Positions 7,951 to 34,141 of a stretch of DNA of 62,998 nucleotides are shown here, one piece after another. The notes beneath the pieces were generated by a model. That model searched no databases. It was not told the DNA's origin and saw only the letters and a list, made by a program, of their open reading frames with translations. Both the position numbers and the translations under genes were made by a program. How positions within the stretch are numbered: the stretch's first letter is position 1; each line of letters begins with the position of its first letter. The DNA comes from Bacilli bacterium. GTDB lineage: Bacteria > Bacillota_I > Bacilli_A > RFN20 > CAG-826. The DNA lies in the NCBI GenBank assembly GCA_017534425.1, contig JAFXWB010000002.1, positions 1 to 62,998 of the forward strand. Direction: 5' to 3'.

Positions 7951-7972
7951 ATTTTCAAAGTAGGAGAGGGGT

Positions 7973-13865: not shown

Positions 13866-13874
13866 TTGAAGTGC

Positions 13875-14461: not shown

Positions 14462-14544
14462 TGTAGTGTAACTCAGTTGGCTAGAGGAAGTTGTAAAGCC
14501 CATCCCTTTACAGTGTGTCGTGGGTTCAAGTCCCACCACTACAA
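14462..14544 (+). tRNA. tRNA-like element / aberrant tRNA (83 nt) with a non-canonical anticodon arm
   Basis: Acceptor TGTAGTG/CACTACA (8 bp if T14461-A14544 is included), D-loop AGTTGG, perfect T-arm GTGGG-TTCAAGT-CCCAC. The anticodon arm is a 7-8 bp stem TTGTAAAG/CTTTACAG with loop CCCAUCC (14499-14505), which lacks U33 and a purine at position 37. Confidence 0.5.
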
Positions 14545-14662
14545 TGCGCCCCTTTAGCCCAAAACGTGCGAGTCTTTATGGGACAATAAAGACGGGAACT
14601 AAGGTTGCGTAGTAGTATCAGCAGTGGTACTACTACGACCTATAAAAGAATAAGGAGTGATT

Positions 14663-16963: not shown

Positions 16964-17941
16964 ATGAGTTTTGATTTGTATTTAGCATCGGCTGATGATG
17001 CTAAAATAATTGATTATATGTATGAAAATGACTATCCCTTGTTGTATAGTCAGTTGAATAACAGAAATTACATTTTAAAACACTTTGCTGCGCAAGAACA
17101 AAATATAACGCATGGTAAGTTGTTAGTTGATAGCGGTGCGCATTCTGCACATACTAAAGGCGTTAAACTTGATTTAGAAGAGTATATTGGTTTTGTAAAT
17201 GACAATATTGATAAAATGTCTTTATATGTACAAGTAGATAAAATTCCTGGTGTATATCGTAAACCAAAAACTGCAAAAGATTGGCTTGAAGCACCACAAT
17301 TAAGTTGGGAAAATTATTTGTATATGAAGGAAAAATCAAAGGACTGGACTAAACTTGTTCCTGTATTTCATCAAGGAGAGGATTATAAGTGGTTGGAAAA
17401 CTTGTGTGATTATGAGTTTTCAGACGGAAGTCATATACCATATATCGGACTTTCTCCTCGTGGTGATGTATCACTACAAGCTAAATATGATTTTTGTGCT
17501 AAGTGTTTTGCGGTAATTCAGAAAAGTAAAAACCCTAAAGTAAAAACTCATGCATTTGGAGCAACAAGTTTATCAATGTTGGAACGTTTACCATTTACAT
17601 CAGCAGATAGTACAACATGGGTACTTGTATCAGCATTTGGACAGGTGTGGATACCAACAGGAATAACAGGTGAAAGTGTTGATGATACAGTTGGAGTTAA
17701 ATTAGGGGTAAGTAAAGAAAACATAAATCATCAGACTGCAACATGGACATATTGGGAACAAAAACCTGAAATAAAAAAGAAGTTAGACGATTATTTTGAA
17801 AGTATTGGAACTAATATTGAAAAATTGTCTGAAAGTCATTCAGAGCGTAGTTTAGCCAGTGCTAAGTTTTGTCAAAATTGGGCTAAAAATTATCAATATA
17901 AAGGATTAGAAAAATTTACAAGTGTTAAGTCATTATTTTAA
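16964..17941 (+). CDS. dpdA: DpdA-like (TGT-fold) 7-deazaguanine DNA transglycosylase candidate
   Basis: 325 aa, SD AAGGAGG. The motifs LLVDSGAHSAH, VPVFHQGEDYKWLE, YIGLSPRG, THAFGATS and FTSADSTTW match the pattern of phage DpdA / archaeosine-TGT-like proteins. Confidence 0.6.
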   Translation: MSFDLYLASADDAKIIDYMYENDYPLLYSQLNNRNYILKHFAAQEQNITHGKLLVDSGAHSAHTKGVKLDLEEYIGFVNDNIDKMSLYVQVDKIPGVYRKPKTAKDWLEAPQLSWENYLYMKEKSKDWTKLVPVFHQGEDYKWLENLCDYEFSDGSHIPYIGLSPRGDVSLQAKYDFCAKCFAVIQKSKNPKVKTHAFGATSLSMLERLPFTSADSTTWVLVSAFGQVWIPTGITGESVDDTVGVKLGVSKENINHQTATWTYWEQKPEIKKKLDDYFESIGTNIEKLSESHSERSLASAKFCQNWAKNYQYKGLEKFTSVKSLF

Positions 17942-17950: not shown

Positions 17951-18574
17951 ATGATTTTATTTTTAGGAGACAGCTTAACGGAAGGCAGTAATAGCAAATT
18001 TTCATTTACTGATTATTTACCACCTGAGTATGAAATATTTAACTTAGGTGTAAGTGGAACTACAATTGGTGAATATTCTATATACCCTGTTGATGGTAAC
18101 AGTTTATTAGGTGTTATTGGAACTCATGGTGATTTGATACAGAGCGCAGATGAAATATTTATTGAATATGGTAGTAATGATGTATCAGCAATAATGTGTG
18201 GTTTTGCTACAATTCAAACTGTAATTGTGTCTTTTGTAAAAGCAATCGATTGGATAAAACAGTTAAATCCAAATGTTAGAATTCATTTTTTAGCATTTGG
18301 GGAAAGTGATAATATAATTTTAAGTCGTGGGATAAATATGTGTAATTACTTAGAAAAAGATTATTTTAGTAAATTTGATTTTAAATTTCCTGTAAGTATG
18401 TATGTAAGTACTTATAAAAAACTTATCTCACATATCAGTAAAGTCTGCGATATAATGTATATGTTTGACGATGAAATGATAAAAGATGAATTTTTGTCTG
18501 ACGATAATATTCACCCAAATGAAATCGGTCATGAGAGAATTGCTAAAAATATATTGAAACAAATTAGGGCTTAA
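17951..18574 (+). CDS. SGNH/GDSL-family hydrolase
   Basis: Block I FLGDSLTEG, block III YGSNDV, block V DDNIHPN. Confidence 0.75.
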   Translation: MILFLGDSLTEGSNSKFSFTDYLPPEYEIFNLGVSGTTIGEYSIYPVDGNSLLGVIGTHGDLIQSADEIFIEYGSNDVSAIMCGFATIQTVIVSFVKAIDWIKQLNPNVRIHFLAFGESDNIILSRGINMCNYLEKDYFSKFDFKFPVSMYVSTYKKLISHISKVCDIMYMFDDEMIKDEFLSDDNIHPNEIGHERIAKNILKQIRA

Positions 18575-18618: not shown

Positions 18619-19299
18619 ATGAAGCAAAAACTAAAAAAGTATGAGGTGATGGCTTATTTCATGGCGGTGTATTGTACATTTACAGTTGTACAAAACCTCT
18701 TTGAAATGAAAACACTAGGAACAGACGCATTTGCGTTTGGTGGTGGTGGTGGTTTATTATCATGGGCAACATTTATGATAATAGATATTTCAACTGAATT
18801 GTTTGGTAAGAAAGATACAATCAAGTTGTACACTTTCGCAGGATTATTAAATTTATTTATTGTGGTAATTGCTCAAGTAATTATAGCATTACCGGGAGTA
18901 TATCCTGAACAAAACGAAGCATTTAGACTGATATTTAGTAATGGTATAAGAACAGCCTTTTCATCATTCGCAGCATTTTGGGTTGGTAATTTCATCAATA
19001 TGACTGTTATGATTAAGATGAAAGAACAAGCAGGTGAGCATGACAATAAATTCTTATTGTTTGTACGTGCGGTATTATCTACAATAGTTGGACAGTTTGT
19101 TGATAACTTTACATTTGCTACACTTGCATTTGCACCTATTGGTATTTCAGCATTTGAAATGACTTGGAAAGCAATATTTACATCATCATGTTTTGGAACA
19201 TTTATGGAAACTGTAAATGAAAGTATCTTTGTTCCATTTATTACAATTCCCTCTATTACAAAACTTAAGGGAAGATTTGAAGAGGAGCAAGTAGCATGA
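18619..19299 (+). CDS. yhhQ: YhhQ/VUT-family queuosine-precursor (7-deazapurine) transporter
   Basis: 226 aa, multi-TM. VRAVLSTIVGQFVDNFTFATLAF and the overall DUF165-like layout. Confidence 0.7.
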   Translation: MKQKLKKYEVMAYFMAVYCTFTVVQNLFEMKTLGTDAFAFGGGGGLLSWATFMIIDISTELFGKKDTIKLYTFAGLLNLFIVVIAQVIIALPGVYPEQNEAFRLIFSNGIRTAFSSFAAFWVGNFINMTVMIKMKEQAGEHDNKFLLFVRAVLSTIVGQFVDNFTFATLAFAPIGISAFEMTWKAIFTSSCFGTFMETVNESIFVPFITIPSITKLKGRFEEEQVA

Positions 19300-19856
19300 G
19301 TACAAAAACAAAGGTATTAACTACAATTGCATTGTCGGTGGCTATAAACATTGTTGGTAGTAAAATATCCTTGTTTTTAAGTTTACCGATATTTTTAGAT
19401 AGTATTGGTACAATTTTAGCTGGTGCTACGTTGGGACCGATAGCTGGATTAGTAACTGCATTGGTTGGTGGATTAGTAAATGGTGTATTGGGTGATATAT
19501 ATTCAATATATTTTGCACCCTCAGGAATGATAATGGGTTTACTTGCAGGTGTGGTATTATACCATAAAAAAGTTACAAAACTATCTGTAATATGGAAAAC
19601 TGCTTTAATTTCAGTACCGGCATCTTTTGTATCAGCACTTATTTCTACATATGTTTTTGGTGGTATTACATCAGCACTTCTTACAACAACTATTATTCAA
19701 GGGTTATCAAAAACTGTAATGGATTTATTTACAAGTGCTTTTGTAACACAAACATTAACTGATTATGTAGATAAACTTATTGCTGTGGTTTTAACACTTG
19801 TAATAATAAAACGTATACCACGTGGTATGTTGTATTTTGCTGATAACAAGCAATGA
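19296..19856 (+). CDS. ECF-transporter S-component-like membrane protein (QueT/QrtT-like by context)
   Basis: 186 aa, 5-6 TM. LDSIGTILAGATLGPIAGLVTALVGGLVNG is typical of ECF S components. Translationally coupled to yhhQ. Confidence 0.55.
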   Translation: MSTKTKVLTTIALSVAINIVGSKISLFLSLPIFLDSIGTILAGATLGPIAGLVTALVGGLVNGVLGDIYSIYFAPSGMIMGLLAGVVLYHKKVTKLSVIWKTALISVPASFVSALISTYVFGGITSALLTTTIIQGLSKTVMDLFTSAFVTQTLTDYVDKLIAVVLTLVIIKRIPRGMLYFADNKQ

Positions 19857-19885
19857 TTAAATGAGTATGTTATAAATTTACAAGA

Positions 19886-19926
19886 ATGCACTAATTACTA
19901 TATATTACGGTAGTTAGTGCATTTTT
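19886..19926 (+). terminator. Rho-independent terminator
   Basis: 12-bp stem TGCACTAATTAC / GTAGTTAGTGCA followed by TTTTT. Confidence 0.75.
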
Positions 19927-19936
19927 AAATTAGTCT

Positions 19937-19965
19937 TTGATATATTACATAGATTGTGATACAAT
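19937..19965 (+). promoter_or_regulatory. Family promoter P2
   Basis: TTGATA, 17-nt spacer ending in TAGATTGTGA, TACAAT (19960-19965). Confidence 0.55.
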
Positions 19966-20006
19966 ATAAATAGTTAAAAATAATATATTATTTTAAGGAT
20001 GTGTGT

Positions 20007-20183
20007 ATGAGTAAAAAAATTACTAATTTAGACAAACTACATGAAATGTTTCCTGATGTGCCATTTAATATTAATGGGTGCAAAGGGATTGATTGTAAAG
20101 AAGGTATTTGTCTTCACCGTAATGAATGTGAATGGAATAATTTTTGGTGCAAAGAATATAAAGGAGTAAACGGTAATGACTAA
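20007..20183 (+). CDS. Cys-rich small protein
   Basis: 58 aa from ATG 20007, with AAGGA 7 nt upstream. Six Cys residues. Confidence 0.5.
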   Translation: MSKKITNLDKLHEMFPDVPFNINGCKGIDCKEGICLHRNECEWNNFWCKEYKGVNGND

Positions 20184-20496
20184 AGTTTTAGAACCGTTAT
20201 ATTATTACAAGCTAAATGAAAGTACAGGCAAAATCATAAAAGTAAATATATTTAATTATGAAGAAGGAAGATTCACTAATTGTAGACGTTTTTATCGTTG
20301 GAAAAATAATAGTGGTATAACAATGTATTGCTATGAAAATGAAATTGATAAGGCAAAAGATTGGCGAGTATATACATTCAATAATAATGATGATTTTGCC
20401 AAACATATGTTGACAGAATATGTAAGAGCTAAATACACAAAATATGAAAGTGAAGCAAAACGTTATAAAAGGATTTTGAAATTATTGGAGGTATAA
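20176..20496 (+). CDS. Hypothetical protein
   Basis: 106-aa ORF with SD AAGGAG upstream. Confidence 0.55.
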   Translation: MTKVLEPLYYYKLNESTGKIIKVNIFNYEEGRFTNCRRFYRWKNNSGITMYCYENEIDKAKDWRVYTFNNNDDFAKHMLTEYVRAKYTKYESEAKRYKRILKLLEV

Positions 20497-20497
20497 A

Positions 20498-20860
20498 ATG
20501 ACAAGAGAAGAAGCCATAACAGTATTCAAAGCATTTATGGAAAATCCCTTATTTAGTGACGTACATAAAGCCGCCTTTAGTATCGCAATACATGACATTA
20601 AGCAACGTCACGATTGGGATATTAACAATTTGATTTTAATAAATAAAGATAATTATGAGCCATTAGAGCAAGAGCCAATTAAAGGACATTGGATATGTCA
20701 TATAAAACATTGTGAAATGAATAATTTAAGACCGAGTGGGTTAGGATGTTATTTTTGGTGTTCTAATTGTGATTGTGGTATTGATAGTAAGAATTTTAGT
20801 AGGGTGAATTATAACTATTGTCCTAACTGTGGTGCAGATATGAGAGAGGTAGAAGAATGA
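20498..20860 (+). CDS. Zinc-ribbon protein with EQEP-x-GHWI motif
   Basis: LEQEPIKGHWI followed by CSNCDCG...YCPNCGADM. Paralogous to the gene at 22103-22432. Confidence 0.6.
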   Translation: MTREEAITVFKAFMENPLFSDVHKAAFSIAIHDIKQRHDWDINNLILINKDNYEPLEQEPIKGHWICHIKHCEMNNLRPSGLGCYFWCSNCDCGIDSKNFSRVNYNYCPNCGADMREVEE

Positions 20861-21183
20861 CAAAACATGAGATAAGAGAGGTATTTATACATTCTATTGC
20901 AGAACAGTACGAAAATCATGGTGAGCGTATTCCTAGTTGGTTGCATATCGGAGATATTGAGTTTGAGGTAGAAGAACAAGAACCATTCAAGCCAATGGCT
21001 GAAATAGACCTTTATTCAGTTATCAAGCAAGAATACATTGAGCGTGAAATTCTCAACAAGATAAGAGCCGAGATTGAGTACACAATGAAATATCAATATG
21101 CTATTGGAGATGACCAATATGCAGAGGGATTTGAGAAAAGCCTAGAAATCATCGACAAGTACAAGGCAGAAAGTGAGGATTAA
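20857..21183 (+). CDS. Hypothetical protein
   Basis: 108-aa ORF. Its start lies within a junction-type sequence GAGGTAGAAGAATGA. Confidence 0.55.
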   Translation: MTKHEIREVFIHSIAEQYENHGERIPSWLHIGDIEFEVEEQEPFKPMAEIDLYSVIKQEYIEREILNKIRAEIEYTMKYQYAIGDDQYAEGFEKSLEIIDKYKAESED

Positions 21184-21483
21184 ATGGCAGATATAGAGTT
21201 AGTAATGAAAATATCAGAAGATTTTATTGATAAGATGGATTCGATTAAAGATGACAGGGAATTATCACGGGAACAGTTACTTACTGTGTACAGAGGATTT
21301 CATGCAATGTTACACCATGGCATACCACTTCCTAAAGGACATGGAAGATTAATTGATGAAAAAGAATTAAAGAAAGAAGCAATAAGATGTGAGTGGAGCA
21401 GGAATATGTATGACAAACTTGACTACACACTGTCTTACATGAAGCCAATCATAGAAGCAGATATTAGAGAGGTAAAAGAATGA
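21184..21483 (+). CDS. Hypothetical protein
   Basis: 99-aa ORF with SD GAGGA upstream. Confidence 0.55.
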   Translation: MADIELVMKISEDFIDKMDSIKDDRELSREQLLTVYRGFHAMLHHGIPLPKGHGRLIDEKELKKEAIRCEWSRNMYDKLDYTLSYMKPIIEADIREVKE

Positions 21484-21743
21484 CAAGAGAAGAAGCAATA
21501 GAATTTGGAAATATGTGGCTTCAAATAAATGAAGATTGTAAAGATAGTAGTACCTATGAATTTTTTCAAAAGGCAACTAAAGCCTTAGAGGAAGAAGCAG
21601 AACGTAAGCCAACAGGAACGTATGAGGAAATGATGACATTTCATCTTAGTGCAATTGCGGCAATACTTATAGATATATCCAAAAGCCTTGCGGTAATTGC
21701 TGACAAAGCAGAAAGTGAGGTAGAAGATGGCGAATGTAAATAA
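21480..21743 (+). CDS. Hypothetical protein
   Basis: 87-aa ORF with ATGA overlap. It ends ...AESEVEDGECK inside a junction repeat. Confidence 0.55.
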   Translation: MTREEAIEFGNMWLQINEDCKDSSTYEFFQKATKALEEEAERKPTGTYEEMMTFHLSAIAAILIDISKSLAVIADKAESEVEDGECK

Positions 21744-21933
21744 TGACGTAACAGTAACATTATCACAGGAGGATAAGGAACTACTGATAAAAGCTATTAA
21801 GACGTGTGAACAGATTGCAAAGAATTGTAATTATAATTGCGATATGTTCATTGATGCAGGAACAGTTTTTGCTGAAATCTTTGATGAATATAAGAATGGC
21901 GAACTTCCTACAGTAATACATTTATATGAGTGA
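21727..21933 (+). CDS. Hypothetical protein
   Basis: 68-aa ORF starting in the junction repeat AGTGAGGTAGAAGATGG. Confidence 0.55.
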   Translation: MANVNNDVTVTLSQEDKELLIKAIKTCEQIAKNCNYNCDMFIDAGTVFAEIFDEYKNGELPTVIHLYE

Positions 21934-21941
21934 GGTAGAAG

Positions 21942-22106
21942 ATGGGAATAATTAAGTTTGATGTAGATATTGGCAAATGGATATTACCCATAGCACTAGA
22001 ACTGAACTTGGTAGGGAATAACCATCGACCATATAACTTTATGATTAGGTTCTTATGTTTCAGTTTGATTATTTGTATTGATGAGGAAGCGAGGGATAAG
22101 GAATGA
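21942..22106 (+). CDS. Hypothetical 54-aa protein (below the ORF-track cutoff)
   Basis: ATG 21942 lies in a junction repeat: MGIIKFDVDIGKWILPIALELNLVGNNHRPYNFMIRFLCFSLIICIDEEARDKE. ATGA overlap with the next gene. Loosely resembles the 22926-23117 product. Confidence 0.45.
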   Translation: MGIIKFDVDIGKWILPIALELNLVGNNHRPYNFMIRFLCFSLIICIDEEARDKE

Positions 22107-22432
22107 GCGCAGAAGATATTGGTGATTATAAAGAATTTCCAACAAAAGAGTCGGCATTAGATTGGCTTGATAATTATTTAAGTCTTGATGAAAGAAACAA
22201 TCTTATAAGGGTATTAGAGCAAGAGCCAAAGACAGGGCATTGGATAGATACTAATAACCATCAATATTACAATGATGGAGATATTGAAACTACTGAACTA
22301 AAGTGTTCATGTTGTAATGAAGAAGTTGAATGGGATATAGAATTATTACATAAACCTTTTTTCTGTGAAAATTGCGGAGCAAAGATGGTTGAGCCACAGG
22401 AAAGTGAGGTAGAAAATGGGAATGACGATTGA
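22103..22432 (+). CDS. Zinc-ribbon protein with EQEP-x-GHWI motif
   Basis: LEQEPKTGHWI, CSCCNEE...FCENCGAKM. Ends ESEVENGNDD* in a junction repeat. Confidence 0.6.
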   Translation: MSAEDIGDYKEFPTKESALDWLDNYLSLDERNNLIRVLEQEPKTGHWIDTNNHQYYNDGDIETTELKCSCCNEEVEWDIELLHKPFFCENCGAKMVEPQESEVENGNDD

Positions 22433-22640
22433 TAAAACAATAGAATTTTTTAACGGATTAGAGTGCCATACTCCACAGGCTAAAGATGCAAGAGATGTGG
22501 CAGTTGACACCATGCGTAAGTATCAGAAGATTGAACAGATAGCTTTTCCTTTACAGTTTTGCACAACAGACAAACTAGAGCATGAAGCAATTATGAAAAT
22601 ATGCGAGGTATTAGAAGATGGGAATGACGGTAGGCAATAG
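22416..22640 (+). CDS. Hypothetical protein (MGMTID start)
   Basis: 74-aa ORF starting in a junction repeat. Confidence 0.55.
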   Translation: MGMTIDKTIEFFNGLECHTPQAKDARDVAVDTMRKYQKIEQIAFPLQFCTTDKLEHEAIMKICEVLEDGNDGRQ

Positions 22641-22836
22641 AATCACACTTGCTTTAAAAATGCGAGGTATATCACAAAAGGAATTAGCAAACAAAACACG
22701 AATGACAGAACAGACCATAAGTAGATACGTGCATGATGTTCGCACACCAAATGCAAAAGCAATAAAGATATTGTGCAAGGCTTTATGTGTAAGTGCTGAT
22801 TGGTTATTGGGAGTAGAAAATGGGAATGACGATTGA
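22618..22836 (+). CDS. XRE/Cro-type HTH transcriptional regulator
   Basis: LKMRGISQKELANKTRMTEQTISRYVHDVRTPNAKAIKILCKALCVSADWLLG. Confidence 0.7.
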   Translation: MGMTVGNRITLALKMRGISQKELANKTRMTEQTISRYVHDVRTPNAKAIKILCKALCVSADWLLGVENGNDD

Positions 22837-22933
22837 TACAGACCCAATATGTGAATCATGCAAGAAAGATTGGACTAAATGCGGTACTTGTCCTGTTATG
22901 ATGCAATGGGTAAAGGAGCATAAGCATGAATGA
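22820..22933 (+). CDS. 37-aa CxxC...CxxC mini-protein (below the ORF-track cutoff)
   Basis: MGMTIDTDPICESCKKDWTKCGTCPVMMQWVKEHKHE. It starts in a junction repeat and overlaps the next ATG. Confidence 0.45.
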   Translation: MGMTIDTDPICESCKKDWTKCGTCPVMMQWVKEHKHE

Positions 22934-23117
22934 TTTTGATTGGGGTAAGACCTTTGGTAGATTTTTTATCTCATTTATCATCAATGATGATTTCTTTGGA
23001 ATAGCAATTAGAATCGGAAAAGAGTATGCGGATGATGCAAGTTGTGGAGTTTTTCATTTAATAATACAGATAGGTTATGGACAATTTACCATAGGCATTG
23101 CAGAAAAGGAGTTGTGA
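22926..23117 (+). CDS. Hypothetical protein
   Basis: 63-aa ORF with SD AAGGAG upstream. Confidence 0.5.
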   Translation: MNDFDWGKTFGRFFISFIINDDFFGIAIRIGKEYADDASCGVFHLIIQIGYGQFTIGIAEKEL

Positions 23118-23119
23118 AG

Positions 23120-23266
23120 ATGGATGCAACAATTAACATATCAATGGGAACTAAAGACTATGAGTTTTACAATGTTCCCGAGAAAGTAGCAAAGGCAATA
23201 ATCACACTTCTGCATGAGTGTGAAAAAGATGATAGCACTATTGTTTCAGCTATCAGTGAGAGGTAG
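23120..23266 (+). CDS. Hypothetical 48-aa protein
   Basis: ATG 23120 lies 8 nt after AAAAGGAG. The track start at 23042 is unlikely. Confidence 0.5.
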   Translation: MDATINISMGTKDYEFYNVPEKVAKAIITLLHECEKDDSTIVSAISER

Positions 23267-23269
23267 AAG

Positions 23270-23530
23270 ATGGGAATGAGAACAATCATTATGCATCCAA
23301 CAGTTGAAAGAGCTACGCAAAATTGGTTACAGTTATGCAGAAATCACAAGTCTTTGATTAAAGAAGCAAAACGTAATCCTTTATCGGTCAAATTTATCAA
23401 TGGTGATATCTGGTACTTTAGAGGGGAAACAGAAGGTGCAAGGGCATACAAAGGTTATCATGCTGAAATGATTAGTGTTGATGATTTCCCGCTTGATGAC
23501 AAAATTGGTGAAGTTTTTGTAAAGGAGTAG
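23270..23530 (+). CDS. Hypothetical protein (MGM start)
   Basis: 86-aa ORF starting in a junction repeat. Confidence 0.55.
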   Translation: MGMRTIIMHPTVERATQNWLQLCRNHKSLIKEAKRNPLSVKFINGDIWYFRGETEGARAYKGYHAEMISVDDFPLDDKIGEVFVKE

Positions 23531-23533
23531 AAG

Positions 23534-23683
23534 ATGGGAATGACGATTGATATATCAGACGGGATGTTAGAATTGATGCTATACAAATTCAAAAAATGGC
23601 TTGGTTCAGTACCTAGAGAGTTACAGAACAGGCAGATTAAACATAAGCTGTATATGGAGGATGAAAATGGGAATGTCGATTGA
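23534..23683 (+). CDS. Hypothetical 49-aa protein (below the ORF-track cutoff)
   Basis: MGMTIDISDGMLELMLYKFKKWLGSVPRELQNRQIKHKLYMEDENGNVD. Both its start and its end lie in junction repeats. Confidence 0.45.
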   Translation: MGMTIDISDGMLELMLYKFKKWLGSVPRELQNRQIKHKLYMEDENGNVD

Positions 23684-23816
23684 GGAAGCAATAATAAGAT
23701 GCAAAAACAATGCCGAGTATGAGCGTACTCATGGTAATTTGCAAGGATGTTTAGAATTTAGACAGCTTGCGAAATGGTTAGAAGAGTTAAGGGCATATCT
23801 CAAATTGTTTAAGTAA
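23667..23816 (+). CDS. Hypothetical 49-aa protein (MGMSIE start)
   Basis: ATG 23667 lies in a junction repeat. The track start at 23601 is unlikely. Confidence 0.5.
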   Translation: MGMSIEEAIIRCKNNAEYERTHGNLQGCLEFRQLAKWLEELRAYLKLFK

Positions 23817-23830
23817 AAAGGAGTTAGAAG

Positions 23831-24148
23831 ATGAAAGTAGTCAGAGTAAATGATTTTGATATTCCGTCAGATGAAAATGATTATGACGAGTTAGTAGCTT
23901 TTGCAGACACAATGGCAAGTATTGAACAGTTTGAAGCAATCCCAAAAGACCAATACGAAGCAAGATTAAAGGCTGATATGGTGGCTATGCTTACAGAGAT
24001 ACAGTTGGAGATTGAAGACACTGGCGCATATGAGCAGGAAGTAAATGGGAAGACAGAGTATCTTAAAGGTATTAATTATGCTTATTCTGTTATCCAACAG
24101 AAAATCAATGAGTTAAAGGAGAATAAAGATGGCAGTAATAATAACTAA
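23831..24148 (+). CDS. Hypothetical acidic protein
   Basis: 105-aa ORF with SD AAGGAG upstream. Confidence 0.55.
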   Translation: MKVVRVNDFDIPSDENDYDELVAFADTMASIEQFEAIPKDQYEARLKADMVAMLTEIQLEIEDTGAYEQEVNGKTEYLKGINYAYSVIQQKINELKENKDGSNNN

Positions 24149-24431
24149 TATGGATATGCCTAAGAGTTGTTCTGATTGTAATCTTTGTTCATGTCAAAAA
24201 ATTGGACTATTTTATTGTGATATAACTACATCTTACATTGACATAGATAGTGAAGAACGTGATGCGGATTGTCCTCTTAAATCAACAGATGAAATCATCA
24301 AAGAATTTGGAAATGCTTCAAGCAACTATCCAGAAGATGATGATTATAACCAAGGCATTCATTACGGATTACATGTAGCGGAACAAATAATTGAGCATAT
24401 ATTGTACGGAGAGAACACAGATGAAAACTGA
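24129..24431 (+). CDS. Cys-rich hypothetical protein
   Basis: 100-aa ORF with SD AAGGAG. CSDCNLCSC...C motif. Confidence 0.55.
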   Translation: MAVIITNMDMPKSCSDCNLCSCQKIGLFYCDITTSYIDIDSEERDADCPLKSTDEIIKEFGNASSNYPEDDDYNQGIHYGLHVAEQIIEHILYGENTDEN

Positions 24432-24594
24432 TGACGCCTATACAAAAATAATTAACCAATTAGATGTGTTACACAGAGAAGTTTTAGCTATGATAAATTT
24501 ATTCCTTATTTCACAGGGAGTTGATGATACTGAACGAAATACATATTTAGGTACAATGATGAAAAAATGGGAAGATGAAAGGAAAAGATACTAA
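24421..24594 (+). CDS. Hypothetical 57-aa protein
   Basis: ATG 24421 lies 7 nt after GGAGAG. Confidence 0.45.
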   Translation: MKTDDAYTKIINQLDVLHREVLAMINLFLISQGVDDTERNTYLGTMMKKWEDERKRY

Positions 24595-24836
24595 TGAAAA
24601 TCAAAAGTATATTATCAATAATAGCATTAACCGTATTATTAACAGGCTGTAACAAACAGGTAGTGGATTTTAATTACACTTTTAACTATGCTATTATTCA
24701 GTTACCTAATGGAGAGATAGTTCAAGGATATGTTGAGTCGTGGACTGATTATGAGGATGGAGAACAGTTGCAGGTTAAGATAGACGGTGTAACATATCTC
24801 TGCTCTTCCTATAACTGTGTATTGATGCATAAGTGA
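24594..24836 (+). CDS. Lipoprotein
   Basis: The signal peptide MKIKSILSIIALTVLLTGC carries a lipobox LTGC. Confidence 0.65.
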   Translation: MKIKSILSIIALTVLLTGCNKQVVDFNYTFNYAIIQLPNGEIVQGYVESWTDYEDGEQLQVKIDGVTYLCSSYNCVLMHK

Positions 24837-24845
24837 GGAGAAGAA

Positions 24846-24977
24846 ATGATAGGATACATACTAGTAACAATAGGATTATGCTTTGTAAGTTATATATTAG
24901 GAATAATAGCAGGAACAAGACATTGTTTTGAATACTTGAAGGAAAAATTAAATGAAGCCAAAAGGAACGAGAAATAG
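24846..24977 (+). CDS. 43-aa single-TM peptide (below the ORF-track cutoff)
   Basis: SD GAGGAG. MIGYILVTIGLCFVSYILGIIAG TM followed by a charged tail. Confidence 0.4.
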   Translation: MIGYILVTIGLCFVSYILGIIAGTRHCFEYLKEKLNEAKRNEK

Positions 24978-25116
24978 TACAGCCTGTAAAAACTGTATAT
25001 ATTCAGAATTAACTTATTCACCTGTATTAAAAGCCTTAGTTATAACGTGTAATGCAGATATAGATAGATGTGAGGGGTGTAAAAAGGCACGGTCATATTA
25101 TAAGAATACTGATTAA
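24952..25116 (+). CDS. 54-aa Cys-rich peptide (below the ORF-track cutoff)
   Basis: SD GAAGGA. CKNC...C...CEGC. Confidence 0.35.
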   Translation: MKPKGTRNSTACKNCIYSELTYSPVLKALVITCNADIDRCEGCKKARSYYKNTD

Positions 25117-25173
25117 GTTTACATTTTATACATAAAAACTATATATTAAGTATATTTATTTAAGGAGGATTAT

Positions 25174-26250
25174 ATGGAACTTTCAATTAAAACATTAGAG
25201 TTGCAAGAAATGGTAGACAAAGTGGGAACATGTGTTAGTAATAATAAACTTATCCCACTTACATCATTATTAAGTATTGGTGTAAAAGACAAGCATCTAG
25301 TATTAACTGCTACTGATGCTACAAACTATTTTTATTCTTTAAGTAAATCAGAAGTTGATTGTGAAGATTTTGAAATTGCGGTAATTGCTGATTTGTTTAT
25401 TAAACTTATTCAGAAAATGACTTCTGAAAATATCACTATTACAGTAGATGAAAGTGTTAAGGTAAAAGGTAATGGTAATTATACACTTGCACTTATTTTA
25501 GATGAAAATGGTGGTAACATTAAATTTCCTAAAAAGTTTAGTCTTGATGAATTTAGAAATGATGGTGGTACATTAAAATTAACAACAATTAACACTATTT
25601 TGAATTATAATAAGCCATCACTTGCCACAAGTTTATCATTACCTGCACTTACTATGTATTATTGTGGCGATAAAGTAATTACTTCTGATAGATCAAAAAT
25701 GTGTTCTACACAAGTGAAAACATTCGATAAACCATATTTGATTTCTGCGAAACTAATGGAATTGTTAAGTAAAATGTCTGATGAAGATATTATGGTACTT
25801 ACAACTGATAAAGACTTAATATTTAGAACATCAAATGAGCTGATATATTCACCGATTGCAGACGGTATTGAAACTTTCCCTGTTAAAGTACTTGATGATT
25901 TAAGTACAAGTGCATTTCCATCAACTTGTAAAGTATCAAGGTCAGCTGTTGTAGAGGTACTTGATAGACTTGCATTGTTTGTTTCCGCATATGATAAAAA
26001 GGTAATAACACTTACATTTACACGTGATGGAATAATGTTTAGCAGTAAAAATTCTGATGGTGTTGAATTGATACCTTATATTTCAAGTACTGATTTTAAA
26101 GATTATCAATGTAGTTTAGATGTTGAAATGCTTAAATCACAAATTGCAACTCAATCAGAAGATGCTATTGAAATTGCATATGGCTCAGAAGTTGCGGTTA
26201 AATTGATATTGAATAATGTTATCCAAATTATAGCACTTGCGGAGGAATAA
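25174..26250 (+). CDS. dnaN: DNA polymerase III beta-type sliding clamp
   Basis: 358 aa, SD AAGGAGG. The N-terminus (LIPLTSLLSIGVKDKHLVLTATDATNYF) and the three-domain length are typical of DnaN. Confidence 0.7.
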   Translation: MELSIKTLELQEMVDKVGTCVSNNKLIPLTSLLSIGVKDKHLVLTATDATNYFYSLSKSEVDCEDFEIAVIADLFIKLIQKMTSENITITVDESVKVKGNGNYTLALILDENGGNIKFPKKFSLDEFRNDGGTLKLTTINTILNYNKPSLATSLSLPALTMYYCGDKVITSDRSKMCSTQVKTFDKPYLISAKLMELLSKMSDEDIMVLTTDKDLIFRTSNELIYSPIADGIETFPVKVLDDLSTSAFPSTCKVSRSAVVEVLDRLALFVSAYDKKVITLTFTRDGIMFSSKNSDGVELIPYISSTDFKDYQCSLDVEMLKSQIATQSEDAIEIAYGSEVAVKLILNNVIQIIALAEE

Positions 26251-28236: not shown

Positions 28237-28335
28237 ATGTTAGTAAATCCGTTTTACATGGGAATTTTTGTAACTTTAGCATGTGAAGCAATACTAATTA
28301 TAGTTGTTGCGATTATTTATGGAAGGAGGAAGTGA
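28237..28335 (+). CDS. 32-aa TM peptide (below the ORF-track cutoff)
   Basis: SD AAAGGAG. MLVNPFYMGIFVTLACEAILIIVVAIIYGRRK. Its stop overlaps the recA ATG. Confidence 0.35.
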   Translation: MLVNPFYMGIFVTLACEAILIIVVAIIYGRRK

Positions 28336-29441
28336 TGTCTAAACTTGATGAAATCGTAAAACAAGTTAATAAAGATTGGAAAGAGAATATAGCATCAAGA
28401 GGTGTAATATGGAAAAAATTACCTAAAATACCATTTACAAGTCCGAGATTAAATTATATGTTGTACGGTGGTATTCAGCGAGGACGTTTACATGAGTTTT
28501 CAGGACCGGAAGGTGGCGGTAAAACATCAACTGCATTAGATTTATGTAAAAATGCTCAAAAGTTGTTTCAAGAGGAATATGCAGAAAAACTGTCTAACGC
28601 AAAAGATGAAAAAGAAAAAGCATTTATTGAAGCAATAGGTCCACAAAAAGTAGTTTACGCTGATTGTGAAAATACACTTGATGAAGATTGGGCAAGGACA
28701 TTAGGTGTTGATGTAGATGGTATGTACATATTGAAACCACAAACACAAGCGGCAGAAGATATATTTCAAATAGTATTAGATATGCTTAATACAGGTGAAT
28801 GTGGTTTAGCTATAATTGATAGTTTGGGTGTTATGATGTCTAAACAAGCATATGAAAAAAGTATGGACGAAAAAACATATGGTGGTATATCAATGCCCCT
28901 TACATTGTTTAGTAAGAAAGCAGAACTTGCCTGTCATAAATATAATGCTACTGTTATCGGTATAAATCAAGAGCGTGCTGATATGAATAATCCTTATGGA
29001 GGTACAACAACACCAGGAGGTATGGGTTGGAAATACAATTGTACAACTAGATTGAGATTTTCAAAAGGTGATTTATTAGATGAAGACGGTAATAAATTAA
29101 CCCGTAGTTCAGAATTTGCAGCCGGGAATCGTGTAATGGTAGGTTTACTTAAACAAAAAGGGGATAAACCTGATAGGCGGTTAAGTTTTTATACATTAAC
29201 CTATAAAAATGGTATTGATGAAATAGCTGATTTGATTGAAGTTGCTCTTAAATATGGCTACATTCAAAAAGGTGGAGCATGGTTTAGTTTTGTTGATATA
29301 GAAACAGGTGAAGTTGTTACCGATGAAGAAGGTAAAGAGATTAAAGTACAAGGGCAATCAAATGTAGCTAAGTTACTTAGAGAAAATGATGTACTACTTG
29401 ATGAATTAAGAGCACAAATTGAAGGAGCAATGAATGGATAA
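28335..29441 (+). CDS. recA: RecA-family recombinase
   Basis: Walker A GPEGGGKTS, Walker B LAIIDSLG, RecA core length. ATG 28335 lies 5 nt after AAGGAGG. Confidence 0.8.
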   Translation: MSKLDEIVKQVNKDWKENIASRGVIWKKLPKIPFTSPRLNYMLYGGIQRGRLHEFSGPEGGGKTSTALDLCKNAQKLFQEEYAEKLSNAKDEKEKAFIEAIGPQKVVYADCENTLDEDWARTLGVDVDGMYILKPQTQAAEDIFQIVLDMLNTGECGLAIIDSLGVMMSKQAYEKSMDEKTYGGISMPLTLFSKKAELACHKYNATVIGINQERADMNNPYGGTTTPGGMGWKYNCTTRLRFSKGDLLDEDGNKLTRSSEFAAGNRVMVGLLKQKGDKPDRRLSFYTLTYKNGIDEIADLIEVALKYGYIQKGGAWFSFVDIETGEVVTDEEGKEIKVQGQSNVAKLLRENDVLLDELRAQIEGAMNG

Positions 29442-29967
29442 ATTATTATTACATAGTTGTTGTGCTCCTTGTAGTAGTGCCATAGTAGAAGAGCTATATA
29501 AACATTTTGATTTGACTTTGTATTACTATAATCCTTGTATAACAGATAAAGACGAGTATTATAAAAGGGCAGATGAATTAAAGAAATTTAGAAATAAAGC
29601 TACTATTATTATCGGTCCACATACACCTAATGCATTTTTTGAAATGGCAAAAGGAATGGAGCATTTTCCTGAAGGTGGTGCTAGATGTAGGTTGTGTTAT
29701 TATCAACGACTTAACAAAACTGCTGCATATGCAAAACAAAATGATTTTAGATATTTTTCTACAACATTAACTATTAGTCCTTATAAGGATTCTGCTACAA
29801 TAAATGCAATAGGTAAACAATGCGGATGGGATAATGATGTAATGTATATGCCTTTTGATTTTGGTTACTTATATATAAAGTCGTTGCAACTATGCAAAGA
29901 ATACAACTTGTATCAGCAAGATTATTGCGGATGCCCATATTCAAAGAATAACTGCACTCAACCTTGA
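29434..29967 (+). CDS. queH: QueH-type (DUF208) epoxyqueuosine reductase homologue
   Basis: LLLHSCCAPCS, YYYNPCI, GGARCRLCYYQRL, FSTTLTISPYK, YQQDYCGCPYS: the QueH Cys pattern. Confidence 0.75.
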   Translation: MDKLLLHSCCAPCSSAIVEELYKHFDLTLYYYNPCITDKDEYYKRADELKKFRNKATIIIGPHTPNAFFEMAKGMEHFPEGGARCRLCYYQRLNKTAAYAKQNDFRYFSTTLTISPYKDSATINAIGKQCGWDNDVMYMPFDFGYLYIKSLQLCKEYNLYQQDYCGCPYSKNNCTQP

Positions 29968-32195: not shown

Positions 32196-32406
32196 ACATC
32201 AATTAGTTAAAGAACATCTGATAAAACATGGTAGTATCACAAGTTGGGAAGCAATACAGAAGTACGGTGCAACACGATTGTCTGCAATTATCTTCAATTT
32301 GCGTAAACATGGTTATGATATTGATACTATAATGCGTGAAGAAAGTGATAGATATGGTAATACTTGTCAGTATGCTAATTATGTTTTGAAAGGGATTGAA
32401 AAATGA
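32188..32406 (+). CDS. Small winged-helix DNA-binding protein
   Basis: 72 aa. GSITSWEAIQKYGATRLSAIIFNLRKHGYDI. Confidence 0.45.
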   Translation: MNKHQLVKEHLIKHGSITSWEAIQKYGATRLSAIIFNLRKHGYDIDTIMREESDRYGNTCQYANYVLKGIEK

Positions 32407-32936
32407 GTGAAGCATTAGCTATTAAATATCGTCCTAAAACATTTGATGATGTTACAGAACAAGGCGCAATTAAAACTATATTAGAGCAACAATTAAAAAG
32501 TAATGATATTAAGCATGGTTATTTGTTTTGTGGACCTTCGGGCTGTGGGAAGACAACAGCAGCCAGGATATTTGCAAATGAAATTAACAAAGGAAAAGGT
32601 TCACCAATTGAACTTGATGCTGCAAGTAATAATAGCGTGGATGATATTAGGGAAATGACGGAAGAAGCGCAAAGGCGTTCATTAGATAGTGATTATAAGA
32701 TTTTTATTTTGGACGAGGCGCACATGATAACACCACAAGGATTTAATGCGTTTTTGAAAACACTTGAAGAACCACCTGCAATGACTATATTCATCATGTG
32801 TACAACTGACCCAGAACGTATACCTAAAACCATTTTGAGCCGAGTTCAGCGTTACAATTTTCAGAAAATAAGTACGCAAGGTATTGTGAATAGGTTGACT
32901 TATATACTTGAGCAGGAAGGTTATACTTGTGAATAA
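32403..32936 (+). CDS. dnaX: Clamp-loader large subunit (DnaX-like), N-terminal AAA+ fragment
   Basis: YRPKTFDDV, Walker A GPSGCGKTT, Walker B FILDEAHM, LEEPP, TILSRVQRY. The homology stops at ...LEQEG, followed by 4 non-homologous residues and a stop. Confidence 0.85.
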   Translation: MSEALAIKYRPKTFDDVTEQGAIKTILEQQLKSNDIKHGYLFCGPSGCGKTTAARIFANEINKGKGSPIELDAASNNSVDDIREMTEEAQRRSLDSDYKIFILDEAHMITPQGFNAFLKTLEEPPAMTIFIMCTTDPERIPKTILSRVQRYNFQKISTQGIVNRLTYILEQEGYTCE

Positions 32937-33640
32937 TTACATTGTCTATAAGCATACAAGTCCTTCAAATAAAGTGTATATAGGAATAACTTGTAGGACT
33001 ATGCAAACTCGAGCTGGAAAAGATGGTGTAGGTTATTTTGGTAATGAATATTTTAAGAGAGCAATTCAGAAATATGGATGGGATAATTTTAAGCATGAAG
33101 TATTGTATGAAAACCTCACTAAACAACAAGCTTGTGATAAAGAAATAGAGCTGATATCTAAATATAAATCTACGAATGAAAGATTTGGGTATAATATTTG
33201 TGCTGGTGGTGAAGGTAGGTTAGAAAGTAAGCAATCAGAAGAAACCAAGAAGAAAATATCGGAAGCATCGAAAAAACATTGGGCAAATCCTGAAACTCGG
33301 CAAAAAATAATTGAAAGTCTTAAAGGAAGGGAAGTTTCAGAGGAAACTAAAAATAAAATAAAGGAAGCTAAGATAGGTAAATATGTACCGCCGGAAGTAG
33401 GAAGAAAAATAAGCGAAACCAAGAAGGGTAAACATCCGTGGAATTATGGTAAAAAGTGTGGCCCACGTTCTTAAGAAACTAAAGCAAAAATTAGTGCTTA
33501 TAATAAGGGAAAAACAATATCGGACGAACAGAAACAAGCCATTAGTAAAAAACTTAAGGGTCGTGAAATTACTCCGGAACATCGAGCCAAAATTAGTGCA
33601 ACTTTGAAAGCACGAAATGCAGAGAGGAGGAAGCGGAATG
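32922..33640 (+). mobile_element. Free-standing GIY-YIG homing endonuclease insertion that splits the dnaX-like gene
   Basis: The 719-nt intervening sequence sits between in-frame dnaX homology blocks and is almost entirely occupied by the endonuclease reading frame. Confidence 0.6.
32929..33474 (+). CDS. GIY-YIG homing endonuclease with NUMOD3 repeats (in-frame TAA at 33472; frame stays open to 33651)
   Basis: GTG 32929 lies 8 nt after AGGAAGG. YIVYKHTSPSNKVYIGIT, R...H, FGYNICAGGEG, followed by NUMOD3-like repeats. Three more repeats follow the TAA in the same frame. Confidence 0.7.
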   Translation: MNNYIVYKHTSPSNKVYIGITCRTMQTRAGKDGVGYFGNEYFKRAIQKYGWDNFKHEVLYENLTKQQACDKEIELISKYKSTNERFGYNICAGGEGRLESKQSEETKKKISEASKKHWANPETRQKIIESLKGREVSEETKNKIKEAKIGKYVPPEVGRKISETKKGKHPWNYGKKCGPRS

Positions 33641-34141
33641 AAAACATATAGTAAAGAGGCTGTTGAATATATAGCTAAATTATGTGATGGCGGGCTTAGG
33701 GATGGCATTACACTTCTCGATAAGTGTTTAGCATATTCAAACGAATTGACTCTTCAAAATGTAGTATCAGCTCTTGGTGTTGTTGACTATGATTGTATGA
33801 TTGAATTAACTGATATTATAACCGATAAAAATACTCAAGCAATGATAGTTTCTGTTGAAAATATATATAATAGTGGTAAAGACATTAAACAATTCGTTAA
33901 GCAATACGTTCAGTTTTTATTAGACGTAAATAAGTACTTTGTAGGTTGTAGTTGGGAGTATATTGGTATTCCAAAACTTGAGAAGTATGAAGCATGGTTA
34001 AAAGATAATTGTACTGAATATTATGTGAATAAAATACGTGATTTACTTTCCACTATGGTTGATTTAGACGGTAGGATAAAATACAGTAGTTCACCTAAAT
34101 ATGATATTGAAGCTACACTACTTTTGGAGATTACAAAATGA
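33638..34141 (+). CDS. dnaX: Clamp-loader large subunit (DnaX-like), C-terminal fragment
   Basis: ATG 33638 lies 7 nt after GAGGAGG. KTYSKEAVEYIAKLCDGGLRDGITLLDK continues the DnaX domain II/III consensus exactly where the N-fragment stops. Confidence 0.75.
   Translation: MKTYSKEAVEYIAKLCDGGLRDGITLLDKCLAYSNELTLQNVVSALGVVDYDCMIELTDIITDKNTQAMIVSVENIYNSGKDIKQFVKQYVQFLLDVNKYFVGCSWEYIGIPKLEKYEAWLKDNCTEYYVNKIRDLLSTMVDLDGRIKYSSSPKYDIEATLLLEITK

Follow-up and report, generated by a model that had tools for sequence, protein, structure and literature searches.

The queH gene and its product

The window, the whole stretch of 62,998 nucleotides analysed here, carries at positions 29434..29967 of the + strand a queH gene, which encodes a phage-type QueH-family Fe-S enzyme of 177 aa. 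Its upstream neighbour is recA (28332..29441, +), identified by PF00154 and PF21096. The start of queH overlaps the stop of recA by 8 nt. The start codon is ATG and a GAAGGAG Shine-Dalgarno sequence lies 6 nt upstream of it. QueH proteins have one known reaction, the last step of queuosine formation on tRNA, in which oQ is converted to Q.

A preliminary description of this DNA assigned the ORF to the QueH family from its cysteine pattern, and the assignment is borne out by profile, cysteines and fold. The pattern is as claimed, with CCAPCS at residues 9-14, RCRLC at 84-88 and YCGC at 164-167, and the seven cysteines (C9, C10, C13, C85, C88, C165 and C167), which follow the metal-binding pattern CCxx[C/D], CxxC and CxC of the family, are invariant in an alignment of 32 relatives. 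The HMM search against DUF208/QueH that was proposed at the time has been run and gives a full-length match to PF02677 (IPR003828) far above the cutoff (E = 6e-55, 186.4 bits, cutoff 23.5, model positions 1-174 of 175). The QueH of T. maritima is matched by phmmer in the PDB (E = 3e-20). An AlphaFold2 model of the protein (pLDDT 93) is aligned by Foldseek to 7lc5 with a TM of 0.85 and an rmsd of 2.2 A; 7lc7 and 9d86 are also matched, and the next-best folds reach a TM of at most 0.64. The identity as QueH is thus far beyond chance. No NCBIfam model matches the protein, and its PHROG match, phrog_3217, is annotated 'unknown function'.

The residues E80, R84, R92, K118 and D142, together with all of the cysteines, are common to cellular and phage QueHs. 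Comparison with an 88%-identical copy gives a dN/dS of 0.24, and the gene is under purifying selection. From sequence and modelled structure the ORF is predicted to encode an active, selected QueH-family iron-sulfur epoxyqueuosine reductase. No RNA sequencing run containing the queH locus was found.

The adjacency to recA, to which the preliminary description had drawn attention, is real in the window but fails as a functional clue, because the position of QueH varies in relatives. In one of them QueH lies between a Cas4-like nuclease and RecU, and another has a DUF1653 gene between recA and QueH. The adjacency is therefore one of synteny, and recA was rejected as a functional partner of QueH.

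A phage-only branch of QueH

The closest cellular relatives of the window QueH are from gut Firmicutes. It is about 50% identical to the QueHs of Clostridia and Bacilli, and the best cellular match reaches about 52%. The window protein belongs to a monophyletic phage clade with 98% neighbour-joining bootstrap support, in which 21 phage-type QueHs that are 54-88% identical share 50 invariant columns. A search of 185,579 species genomes for QueH gave no phage-type copy in its 80 best matches. The branch is phage-only and is found on phage contigs only.

The fold is common to the phage-type and the cellular QueHs (T. maritima 7lc5 and gut Firmicutes; TM 0.85), and the seven cysteine positions are kept, although residue 13, which is Cys in the window and in Firmicutes, is Asp in T. 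maritima. A difference lies in one loop. The cellular D-F-K-K-x-x-G-Y becomes D-F-[G/S]-[Y/F]-L-Y in 37/37 phage-type QueHs (replacement motif F-D-F-G-[Y/F]-L), with the deletion of two residues. The K-K pair is kept in 160/161 related cellular QueHs, and three distant cellular QueHs also have a dibasic loop (N-F-R-K in T. maritima, N-W-R-K in Acinetobacter, D-F-K-K in S. aureus). The dibasic loop is defined here as K-K or R-K, then x-x-G, after D/N-F/W; this is our own empirical rule, drawn from the 161 cellular sequences plus those of T. maritima, Acinetobacter and S. aureus, and has no published definition. The window loop, D-F-G-Y-L-Y, falls outside it. The strong conservation of the replacement motif suggests that recognition of the substrate or of a partner has changed.

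Two further features of the nearest cellular QueHs, an N-terminal extension of approximately 20 aa and a basic tail at the C terminus, are missing from the phage-type proteins. The pI of the phage-type proteins ranges from approximately 4.7 to 8.2 and is mostly below 6.5, whereas that of cellular QueHs is mostly around 8-9. Because several cellular QueHs are acidic too, overall pI was rejected as proof of lost RNA binding, and on sequence grounds the local loop rather than the pI is judged diagnostic of the phage type. The replacement of Arg by Gln in the LYRQ motif (LYQQ) was likewise rejected as a phage-specific change, since Gln is also present in the QueHs of Acinetobacter and of E. coli prophages.

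Phage-type QueH occurs in rumen phages of three or more unrelated lineages, with differing neighbours: the approximately 60-kb family of the window phage, T4-like phages (for example the 142-kb contig IMGVR_UViG_3300045988_128404), and a 153-kb contig (L023, IMGVR_UViG_3300021400_000130). It has moved horizontally between these phages. In eight T4-like rumen phage loci the order is always gp23, QueH and a 244-aa protein. No Q-related gene lies within 10 kb of QueH at these loci, and neither DpdA nor Que genes are present in the 20 kb seen. On L023 QueH is two genes from a nucleoside 2-deoxyribosyltransferase (NDT) and three from a permease of the xanthine/uracil family. The T4-like contigs and L023 are absent from the DpdA profile matches in IMG/VR (best 80 of 320 and best 80 of 241). 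Searches of Pfam, PHROG and the PDB with the 244-aa and 166-aa proteins encoded beside QueH in these contigs gave nothing informative.

In GenBank phages, megablast with the 8 kb around queH returned nothing. Twenty-five records were found by tblastn, 18 of them short unannotated faecal contigs, and Escherichia phage HannyBb (PP925841) is the only annotated phage genome. Two of the records, Acinetobacter MD-2021a and Staphylococcus SA 1306 Kay, were rejected as bacterial chromosome contigs mislabelled as phage. Cellular-type QueH is present in 995 of the 5,426 complete E. coli genomes (18%), and PGAP annotation already names it in a Qin-like lambdoid prophage. The E. coli prophage protein is of the proteobacterial type, 229 aa long and 37% identical, and it retains N-W-R-K-x-G-G. 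As in the window, the QueH gene of HannyBb and of the Qin-like prophage comes with neither tgt nor queA in the phage genome, and it lies amid accessory genes, outside any Q operon. The E. coli QueH phages differ in being temperate and in lacking DpdA and transporters, both of which the window phage has.

The DpdA-associated genes and their linkage to QueH

The preliminary description had also named DpdA, YhhQ and an ECF-S protein as co-residents of QueH, and each is confirmed by profile matches. A dpdA-like gene for a 7-deazaguanine DNA transglycosylase of the TGT superfamily lies at 16964..17941 (+). Its product has no Pfam hit and no PDB sequence hit, but matches phrog_887 (E = 1e-45), annotated 'queuine tRNA-ribosyltransferase'. 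The motifs DSGA (D56-S-G-A), FG and S213-x-D215-S-T-x-W are invariant in nine relatives, and orthologues adjoin QueC-QueD-QueE-FolE(-QueF) cassettes in related phages. By homology and the putative catalytic Asp motif the protein fits the phage DpdA/TGT-like group. Between dpdA and yhhQ is a gene for an SGNH/GDSL hydrolase (17951..18574, +; PF13472 and PF00657). All 154 homologues of this hydrolase are on contigs of at most 65 kb, and the family is phage-restricted. The yhhQ/QPTR gene for a queuosine-precursor transporter (18619..19299, +; PF02592 Vut_1, E = 8e-29) scores 56.8 bits against TIGR00697, over the cutoff of 50.95 for the QPTR/YhhQ (COG1738) equivalog. The ECF transporter S component (19296..19856, +) matches the generic PF12822 alone and has no QueT match in Pfam or NCBIfam; its best NCBIfam match, NF045596 (CD3073 family), scores 87.9 bits and is under the cutoff of 180. 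The position of ECF-S genes beside dpdA in sister phages suggests that the transporter carries a related cargo.

Genes for preQ0/preQ1 synthesis (FolE, QueD, QueE, QueC) are absent from the window phage. The tblastn queries against the window comprised QueC/D/E/F, FolE, QueT-like, NDT and related cassette proteins; tgt and queA were sought by a Pfam scan of the non-structural ORFs of at least 115 aa, which revealed neither of them. The tRNA genes are limited to a tRNA-Gln(UUG) and a tRNA-like element with a CAU loop, and no tRNA has a GUN anticodon. A preQ1 riboswitch, sought as a clue to the ligand, was not found. The window phage thus fits group 3 of Hutinet 2019, phages with DpdA but no preQ0 genes, some of which have YhhQ (PMC6884629). 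To that group it adds QueH, the SGNH hydrolase and ECF-S, none of which has an assigned step in the known routes. The phage probably modifies its own DNA with salvaged 7-deazaguanine bases.

A survey of related genomes for linkage between queH and dpdA, suggested in the preliminary description, supports linkage at the level of genome and lineage, but in one direction only. DpdA-SGNH-YhhQ is present in 8/8 QueH-positive members of the approximately 60-kb family, in which QueH is seen only alongside the SGNH-YhhQ salvage cassette. About 70 further IMG/VR DpdA loci have no QueH within the fetched flanks of up to 10 kb; their slots contain de novo preQ0/preQ1 cassettes, ECF-S only, YhhQ only, or are empty. 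DpdA is 85% identical both in the QueH-positive sister L003 and in the QueH-negative sisters L005 and L006, so that DpdA does not co-vary with QueH. Nor is QueH ever found in the cargo slot directly downstream of dpdA, which holds QueC/D/E/FolE/QueF, YhhQ, ECF-S, nucleoside hydrolase, NDT or SDR genes and is the place of every other deazaguanine gene. It lies 4-12 kb from dpdA, amid replication and recombination genes. QueH therefore shares genome and lineage with the DpdA-SGNH-YhhQ(-ECF-S) set, outside that cassette, and the co-occurrence, which comes from a single clade, is confounded by shared ancestry.

The cargo slot varies among relatives of the window phage. In the sisters L029, L032 and L033 an ECF-S gene replaces the SGNH-YhhQ pair beside dpdA, and in L035 and L096 NDT-like genes adjoin DpdA-YhhQ. 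In L029 the genes beside dpdA encode ECF-S and a nucleoside hydrolase of the IU type, a pair that resembles queK-qrtT of the C. difficile salvage operon queK-qrtT-queL, which includes an ECF S component and a nucleoside hydrolase (PMC11477304). The likeness is incomplete: no QueL lyase was seen, the L029 hydrolase is nearer to generic IunH than to the family of PDB entry 8db6, and the window phage has no nucleoside hydrolase and an ECF-S protein that is under every NCBIfam cutoff and without a Pfam QueT match.

The substrate of the phage-type enzyme

The 2019 survey reported no QueA, QueG or QueH in the viruses analysed (PMC6884629), and in the 2023 follow-up survey QueH is named only in the reference list. 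Neither survey accounts for a QueH branch that is under selection, confined to phages and spread over three or more unrelated lineages of rumen phages. The preliminary description offered two readings, manipulation of host tRNA Q status or action on an epoxyqueuine-type base destined for or already in DNA, and these are still the serious options. Its view that either would be unusual is softened by the QueH of E. coli prophages.

The second of these, in which phage-type QueH serves 7-deazaguanine salvage or DNA modification and its target is not tRNA but an epoxyqueuine-type base, free or in DNA, is the main rival, though rather unlikely. In a salvage variant a base or nucleoside would be imported by YhhQ or ECF-S, reduced, and put into DNA by DpdA (elsewhere by NDT); in a DNA variant QueH would reduce an epoxyqueuine-type moiety already in phage DNA. 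The presence of DpdA-SGNH-YhhQ in every QueH-positive phage of the approximately 60-kb family, and of QueH in none of the roughly 70 relatives with other slots, within the flanks fetched, favours it. The loss of the dibasic loop and basic extensions is as expected if polyanionic tRNA is no longer bound. QueH near NDT and a permease on L023, and NDT-like genes beside DpdA-YhhQ in two relatives, point the same way. In PDB entries, free queuosine (9deu) and GMP (7lc7) are both ligands of the T. maritima QueH. The DpdA-ECF-S-hydrolase arrangement of L029, by its likeness to queK-qrtT, suggests that Q-family nucleosides may be imported (PMC11477304), although its hydrolase is the closer to generic IunH. 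Against it, DNA bases of the epoxy- or queuine-type are so far unreported, and the known DNA-modification routes make no use of QueH (PMC6884629, PMC10516641). The phage has no queA with which to make the epoxide, QueH never adjoins dpdA, and DpdA is nearly identical in sisters without QueH. Neither DpdA nor Que genes were seen in the 20 kb available for each T4-like carrier, and the co-occurrence is that of one clade. We also know of no source of free epoxyqueuine. That the phage-only QueH works off tRNA and, with DpdA, YhhQ/ECF-S and SGNH, gives a queuosine-type base in phage DNA is unlikely. If the substrate were a free or DNA-borne base, phage DNA hypermodification chemistry would extend to queuosine-type bases, a modification so far undescribed, and functions would follow for the DpdA-associated SGNH hydrolase and transporters.

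It is less probable still that the [4Fe-4S]/Fe reductive chemistry has been kept for another substrate, a 7-deazaguanine intermediate or an unrelated metabolite, perhaps together with a partner protein, from phage or host, that binds to the new hydrophobic FDFG[Y/F]L surface. A monophyletic phage-restricted clade with a strongly conserved replacement motif, the persistence of QueH on three phage backbones that are unrelated and differ in its neighbours, and the phrog_3217 annotation agree with such a new function. The unchanged fold and the retention of E80, R84, R92, K118, D142 and all cysteines argue against it, and no neighbour points to an alternative substrate. The absence of queH from close sister phages would fit a recently captured host gene with no role in infection. 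This is highly improbable and is effectively refuted by the distance to cellular QueHs (about 52% identity at best and no phage-type copy among the best 80 matches), by the depth of a clade under purifying selection, and by the strong Shine-Dalgarno sequence and translational coupling to recA.

We tentatively favour, at something short of an even chance, an auxiliary role of the window QueH in reducing oQ to Q on host tRNA. What the data establish is the family, the conserved metal ligands, the fold, purifying selection, the phage-only distribution and the gene contexts, whereas the substrate and any gain for the phage are inferred. An intact enzyme kept by selection is in keeping with this role. 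The location of QueH outside the dpdA cargo slot, together with the lack of co-variation with DpdA, argues for a role separate from DpdA. The retention of phage-type QueH without detectable DpdA in T4-like phages counts for the tRNA substrate, and the QueHs of HannyBb and the Qin-like prophage, also without DpdA, provide a precedent. It has been proposed that DpdA-less phages with Q-pathway genes may raise tRNA Q (Hutinet 2019, PMC6884629). On the other side are the loss of the dibasic loop, with a strongly conserved motif in its place, and of the N-terminal extension and basic tail, the restriction of QueH in the approximately 60-kb family to phages with the SGNH-YhhQ cassette (8/8), and the lack of tgt, queA and a GUN-anticodon tRNA in the phage. 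Moreover, the presumed hosts are gut Firmicutes, the group with the closest cellular QueHs, so a QueH may already be present in the host. To our knowledge, oQ-tRNA and Q-tRNA have yet to be shown to differ in their effect on fitness.

Were the tRNA substrate true, phages of the virulent type would be finishing an anticodon modification of their host, apparently something not described before, and the gene would be a natural experiment on the role of the QueH dibasic loop. During infection the phage QueH would convert the oQ found at position 34 of four host tRNAs (Asn, Asp, His and Tyr) to Q, with Tgt and QueA supplied by the host. It would offer a cobalamin-independent completion of Q where the last step of the host is missing or limiting. 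Completed Q might then aid the decoding of a phage genome rich in U-ending Asn, Asp, His and Tyr codons; the NAU fraction of these codons is 0.78-0.87 in the phage genome.

Phage-restricted branch of the QueH family

The queH gene (29434-29967, + strand; 177 aa) has an ATG start preceded 6 nt 5' by a Shine-Dalgarno sequence (GAAGGAG), and it overlaps the stop codon of its 5' neighbor recA (28332-29441, + strand) by 8 nt. The protein matches PF02677 (QueH) end to end, over model positions 1-174 of 175, with a score of 186 bits (cutoff 23.5). This HMM search bears out the family call of the preliminary description, and the cysteine motifs it listed are indeed present as CCAPCS (residues 9-14), RCRLC (84-88) and YCGC (164-167). 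In the PDB the sequence matches T. maritima QueH (E = 3e-20). An AlphaFold2 model (pLDDT 93) superimposes on 7lc5 with a TM score of 0.85 and an rmsd of 2.2 A, and the closest folds after QueH, those of other PP-loop/AANH proteins, reach TM scores of at most 0.64. No NCBIfam model matches the protein, and PHROGs assigns it to phrog_3217, labelled 'unknown function'.

The QueH matches from a search of 5.8 billion proteins fall into two sharply distinct groups. Phage-type QueHs are 53-88% identical to the window QueH, lack a C-terminal tail and are found on IMG/VR contigs of up to about 154 kb. They are 172-183 aa long with the CC motif at residues 9-11, apart from one of 190 aa, which was called with a longer N-terminus and has the motif at residue 23. 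Cellular-type QueHs, from Oscillospiraceae, Acutalibacteraceae, Bacilli and relatives, share 53% identity or less, are mostly 195-235 aa long, carry the CC motif after an N-terminal extension and often end in a basic tail. The groups also differ in the loop that follows an invariant D-F, which is K-K-x-x-G-Y in the cellular type (K-K in 160 of 161) and [G/S]-[Y/F]-L-Y, two residues shorter, in the phage type (37 of 37). The dibasic pair is conserved across very distant cellular QueHs, since T. maritima (N-F-R-K-G-G), Acinetobacter (N-W-R-K-N-G-G) and S. aureus (D-F-K-K-S-K-G) all keep it, and from this conservation and its charge we infer a role for the loop. Neither group shows any variation at the seven cysteines, E80, R84, R92, K118 or D142.

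Phage-type QueHs are monophyletic in a neighbor-joining tree (98% bootstrap), and their sister group is the QueHs of gut Firmicutes. Patterns built from the phage-type motifs were also scanned against the genomes of 185,579 bacterial and archaeal species, one per species. This yielded 195 QueHs, and the best 80 are all cellular-type, with no more than 52% identity to the window QueH. A phage-type copy (at least 54% identity) would rank first. Against an 88%-identical copy the dN/dS of queH is 0.24 (0.10 for the adjacent recA segment), and 50 columns are invariant among 21 phage-type sequences. The branch is under purifying selection, and the window QueH is a genuine variant of a known enzyme family, maintained by selection and restricted to phages.

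Carriers and precedents

Eight distinct members of the ~60-kb phage family carry QueH: the window and the comparison loci L002, L003, L004 and L187-L190 (L002 and L030 are one IMG/VR contig, counted once). All eight share the layout PolA, DpdA-SGNH-YhhQ-clamp ... RecA ... QueH, in some with a glycosyltransferase-like gene between PolA and DpdA. QueH follows recA in seven, once with a DUF1653 gene in between, whereas L003 has it between the Cas4-like nuclease and RecU. The position beside recA that had drawn attention is thus real in the window but carries no functional weight. In L189 RecA (8005-9999) has 664 aa against the usual ~368 aa, which suggests an intein or other insertion.

Eight QueH loci belong to T4-like myophages, on contigs up to 142 kb, and every one of them combines gp23 and homing endonucleases with QueH and a 244-aa protein of unknown function. 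In the T4-like rumen phages (L018-L024, about 4300-10000) the major capsid gene adjoining QueH, gp23, is in pieces, interrupted by GIY-YIG and HNH homing endonuclease genes. On the 153-kb contig L023, the genes after QueH are a 166-aa ORF, a nucleoside 2-deoxyribosyltransferase (NDT) and a xanthine/uracil-family permease. The T4-like and L023 QueHs nest within the diversity of the ~60-kb family, which suggests that the gene has passed from phage to phage. These contigs are not among the best 160 DpdA-bearing contigs, and the 20 kb read for each holds no Q-related gene within 10 kb of QueH.

Hutinet et al. 2019 report that they found no homologues of QueA, QueG or QueH among the viruses they studied (PMC6884629). 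QueH appears in Cui et al. 2023 only in the reference list, and searches of the literature turned up no article about a QueH from a phage. In the lambdoid Escherichia phage HannyBb (PP925841, L025 19926-20612) the nin region includes a QueH of the cellular type. This gene also occurs in 995 of 5,426 complete E. coli genomes, and the one context examined (L271 6022-6687, NZ_CP014111; labelled QueH by PGAP) is the nin region of a Qin-like prophage. Because of these copies, a phage-borne QueH without DpdA is not unique; what is unique is the phage-only variant. Two GenBank records, 'Acinetobacter phage MD-2021a' (L026, CAKLQH020000001, 328 kb; soxR and cynX around QueH) and 'Staphylococcus phage SA 1306 Kay' (L027, OR844989, 283 kb; unannotated, UNVERIFIED_ORG), resemble bacterial chromosome contigs, and records of this type inflate counts of phage QueH.

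The window phage and its dpdA slot

The window is a nearly complete phage (about 63 kb, 32.5% G+C, almost all genes on the + strand) found repeatedly in ruminant and bovine gut metagenomes of several studies. Its endolysin, a glucosaminidase with a CW_7 repeat, and a SleB-like hydrolase indicate a Gram-positive host. The replication module runs DnaB, primase, SSB, tRNA-Gln, PolA, DpdA-like, SGNH/GDSL hydrolase, YhhQ and ECF-S, then ~16 small ORFs, beta clamp, Cas4-like nuclease, RecU, RecA, QueH, HNH and clamp loader. DpdA, YhhQ and ECF-S therefore do reside with QueH in one genome, as was first described. YhhQ scores above the NCBIfam equivalog cutoff for the queuosine-precursor transporter, and ECF-S below every NCBIfam cutoff.

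Pfam found no FolE, QueC, QueD, QueE, QueF, QueA or Tgt among 20 further non-structural ORFs of at least 115 aa. Window-wide tblastn with cassette proteins from related phages found no QueC, QueD, QueE, FolE, QueF, QueT-like, NDT or related cassette protein, the window has no preQ1 riboswitch, and the phage encodes none of the earlier steps of tRNA Q synthesis. Because no synthesis genes were found, the phage needs its host or salvage for any 7-deazaguanine base, and its gene content predicts salvage.

Its only tRNAs are a tRNA-Gln(UUG) (13874-13946) and a tRNA-like element whose loop contains CAU (14462-14544), both in a ~700-bp non-coding stretch between SSB and PolA (within 13874-14656). 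The element scores 39 bits with Rfam, was missed by ARAGORN, and carries the loop CCCAUCC on an anticodon stem of 7 bp. A GP20-a RNA motif (48385-48482; RF02991, 68 bits) sits between a 525-aa ORF (46765-48342) and a structural-module ORF (48489-49124). The large DnaX-like clamp-loader gene is split (32403-34141) into residues 1-173 (32403-32936) and, in a different frame, about 185-339 (33617-34141), with a GIY-YIG/NUMOD3 homing endonuclease ORF (32908-33474) between them. Rfam finds no group I intron, and in L187 the counterpart is a single uninterrupted ORF of 342 aa.

A large IMG/VR superfamily (320 matches) has DpdA as its core, and the slot just 3' of dpdA holds variable cargo (L029 9998-12544 and about 80 DpdA loci, L005-L102). 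The cargo is QueC-QueD-QueE-FolE, in some with QueF (motifs SGGxDS, CxxxHGH, CxxxCxxC, CEHH and the QueF motif); YhhQ alone or with an SDR, NDT-like or QueC-like gene; a QueT-like membrane protein; ECF-S; or nothing. The ECF-S of L029 is accompanied by an IU-type nucleoside hydrolase, a pair that is reminiscent of queK-qrtT, the salvage genes of C. difficile (PMC11477304; PMC11130926), and suggests by analogy that nucleoside salvage may feed DpdA. In the window an SGNH/GDSL hydrolase (17951-18574) lies between dpdA and yhhQ. Its family is phage-restricted (154 homologues, none on a contig longer than 65 kb) and occurs in every QueH-positive relative. We know of no step assigned to it in any deazaguanine route.

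Among DpdA loci, QueH was detected only where the slot has its SGNH-YhhQ version. It lies 4-12 kb away (4-8 kb in relatives, 12.5 kb in the window). The larger distance in the window is due to the ~16 small ORFs (54-120 aa; 19856-25174) between ECF-S and the clamp gene; the relatives lack these ORFs, and there the clamp directly follows YhhQ. The suggested linkage is partial: all QueH-positive ~60-kb members have DpdA-SGNH-YhhQ, but QueH is never inside the slot and some sisters are without it. The sister loci L005 and L006, with 85% identical DpdA and both SGNH and YhhQ, lack QueH in the 4-5 kb that follow recA. SGNH homologues (about 150) outnumber phage-type QueH clusters outside the T4-like subclade (roughly 25), and contig sizes in the QueH and SGNH match lists give a rough estimate of QueH in about a quarter of the SGNH clade. 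Because this is one clade, co-occurrence is inseparable from shared ancestry and shared host. On these four counts the dpdA-QueH link is weak.

Candidate substrates of phage-type QueH

The preliminary description proposed either manipulation of host tRNA Q status or action on an epoxyqueuine-type base for, or already in, DNA. We lean tentatively, at slightly under an even chance, to the former, in which phage-type QueH would turn oQ to Q on tRNA, to our knowledge the only known reaction of the family. The catalytic core is intact, and the gene is located outside the dpdA slot, shows no co-variation with DpdA and persists in phages without visible DpdA. There is also the precedent of the prophage QueH in E. 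coli, a species that itself uses the cobalamin-dependent QueG as oQ reductase. In the window U is the third base in 78-87% of the codons for Asn, Asp, His and Tyr, which is a further argument for tRNA. Against it, the dibasic loop and other basic extensions are gone, with a conserved hydrophobic motif instead, and the presumed hosts' groups possess their own QueH. These facts would fit a free-base or DNA substrate, as would the exclusive occurrence of QueH with the salvage cassette in the ~60-kb family, the NDT and nucleobase permease near QueH in L023, and PDB entries in which QueH binds free queuosine and GMP; such a substrate is possible, if less likely. Both of the original proposals thus stay in play.

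Two new facts, the lost loop and the restriction to phages, make the question of the substrate worth an experiment. Some other, new function of phage-type QueH is unlikely, and that a gene conserved in this way is a neutral passenger is highly improbable.
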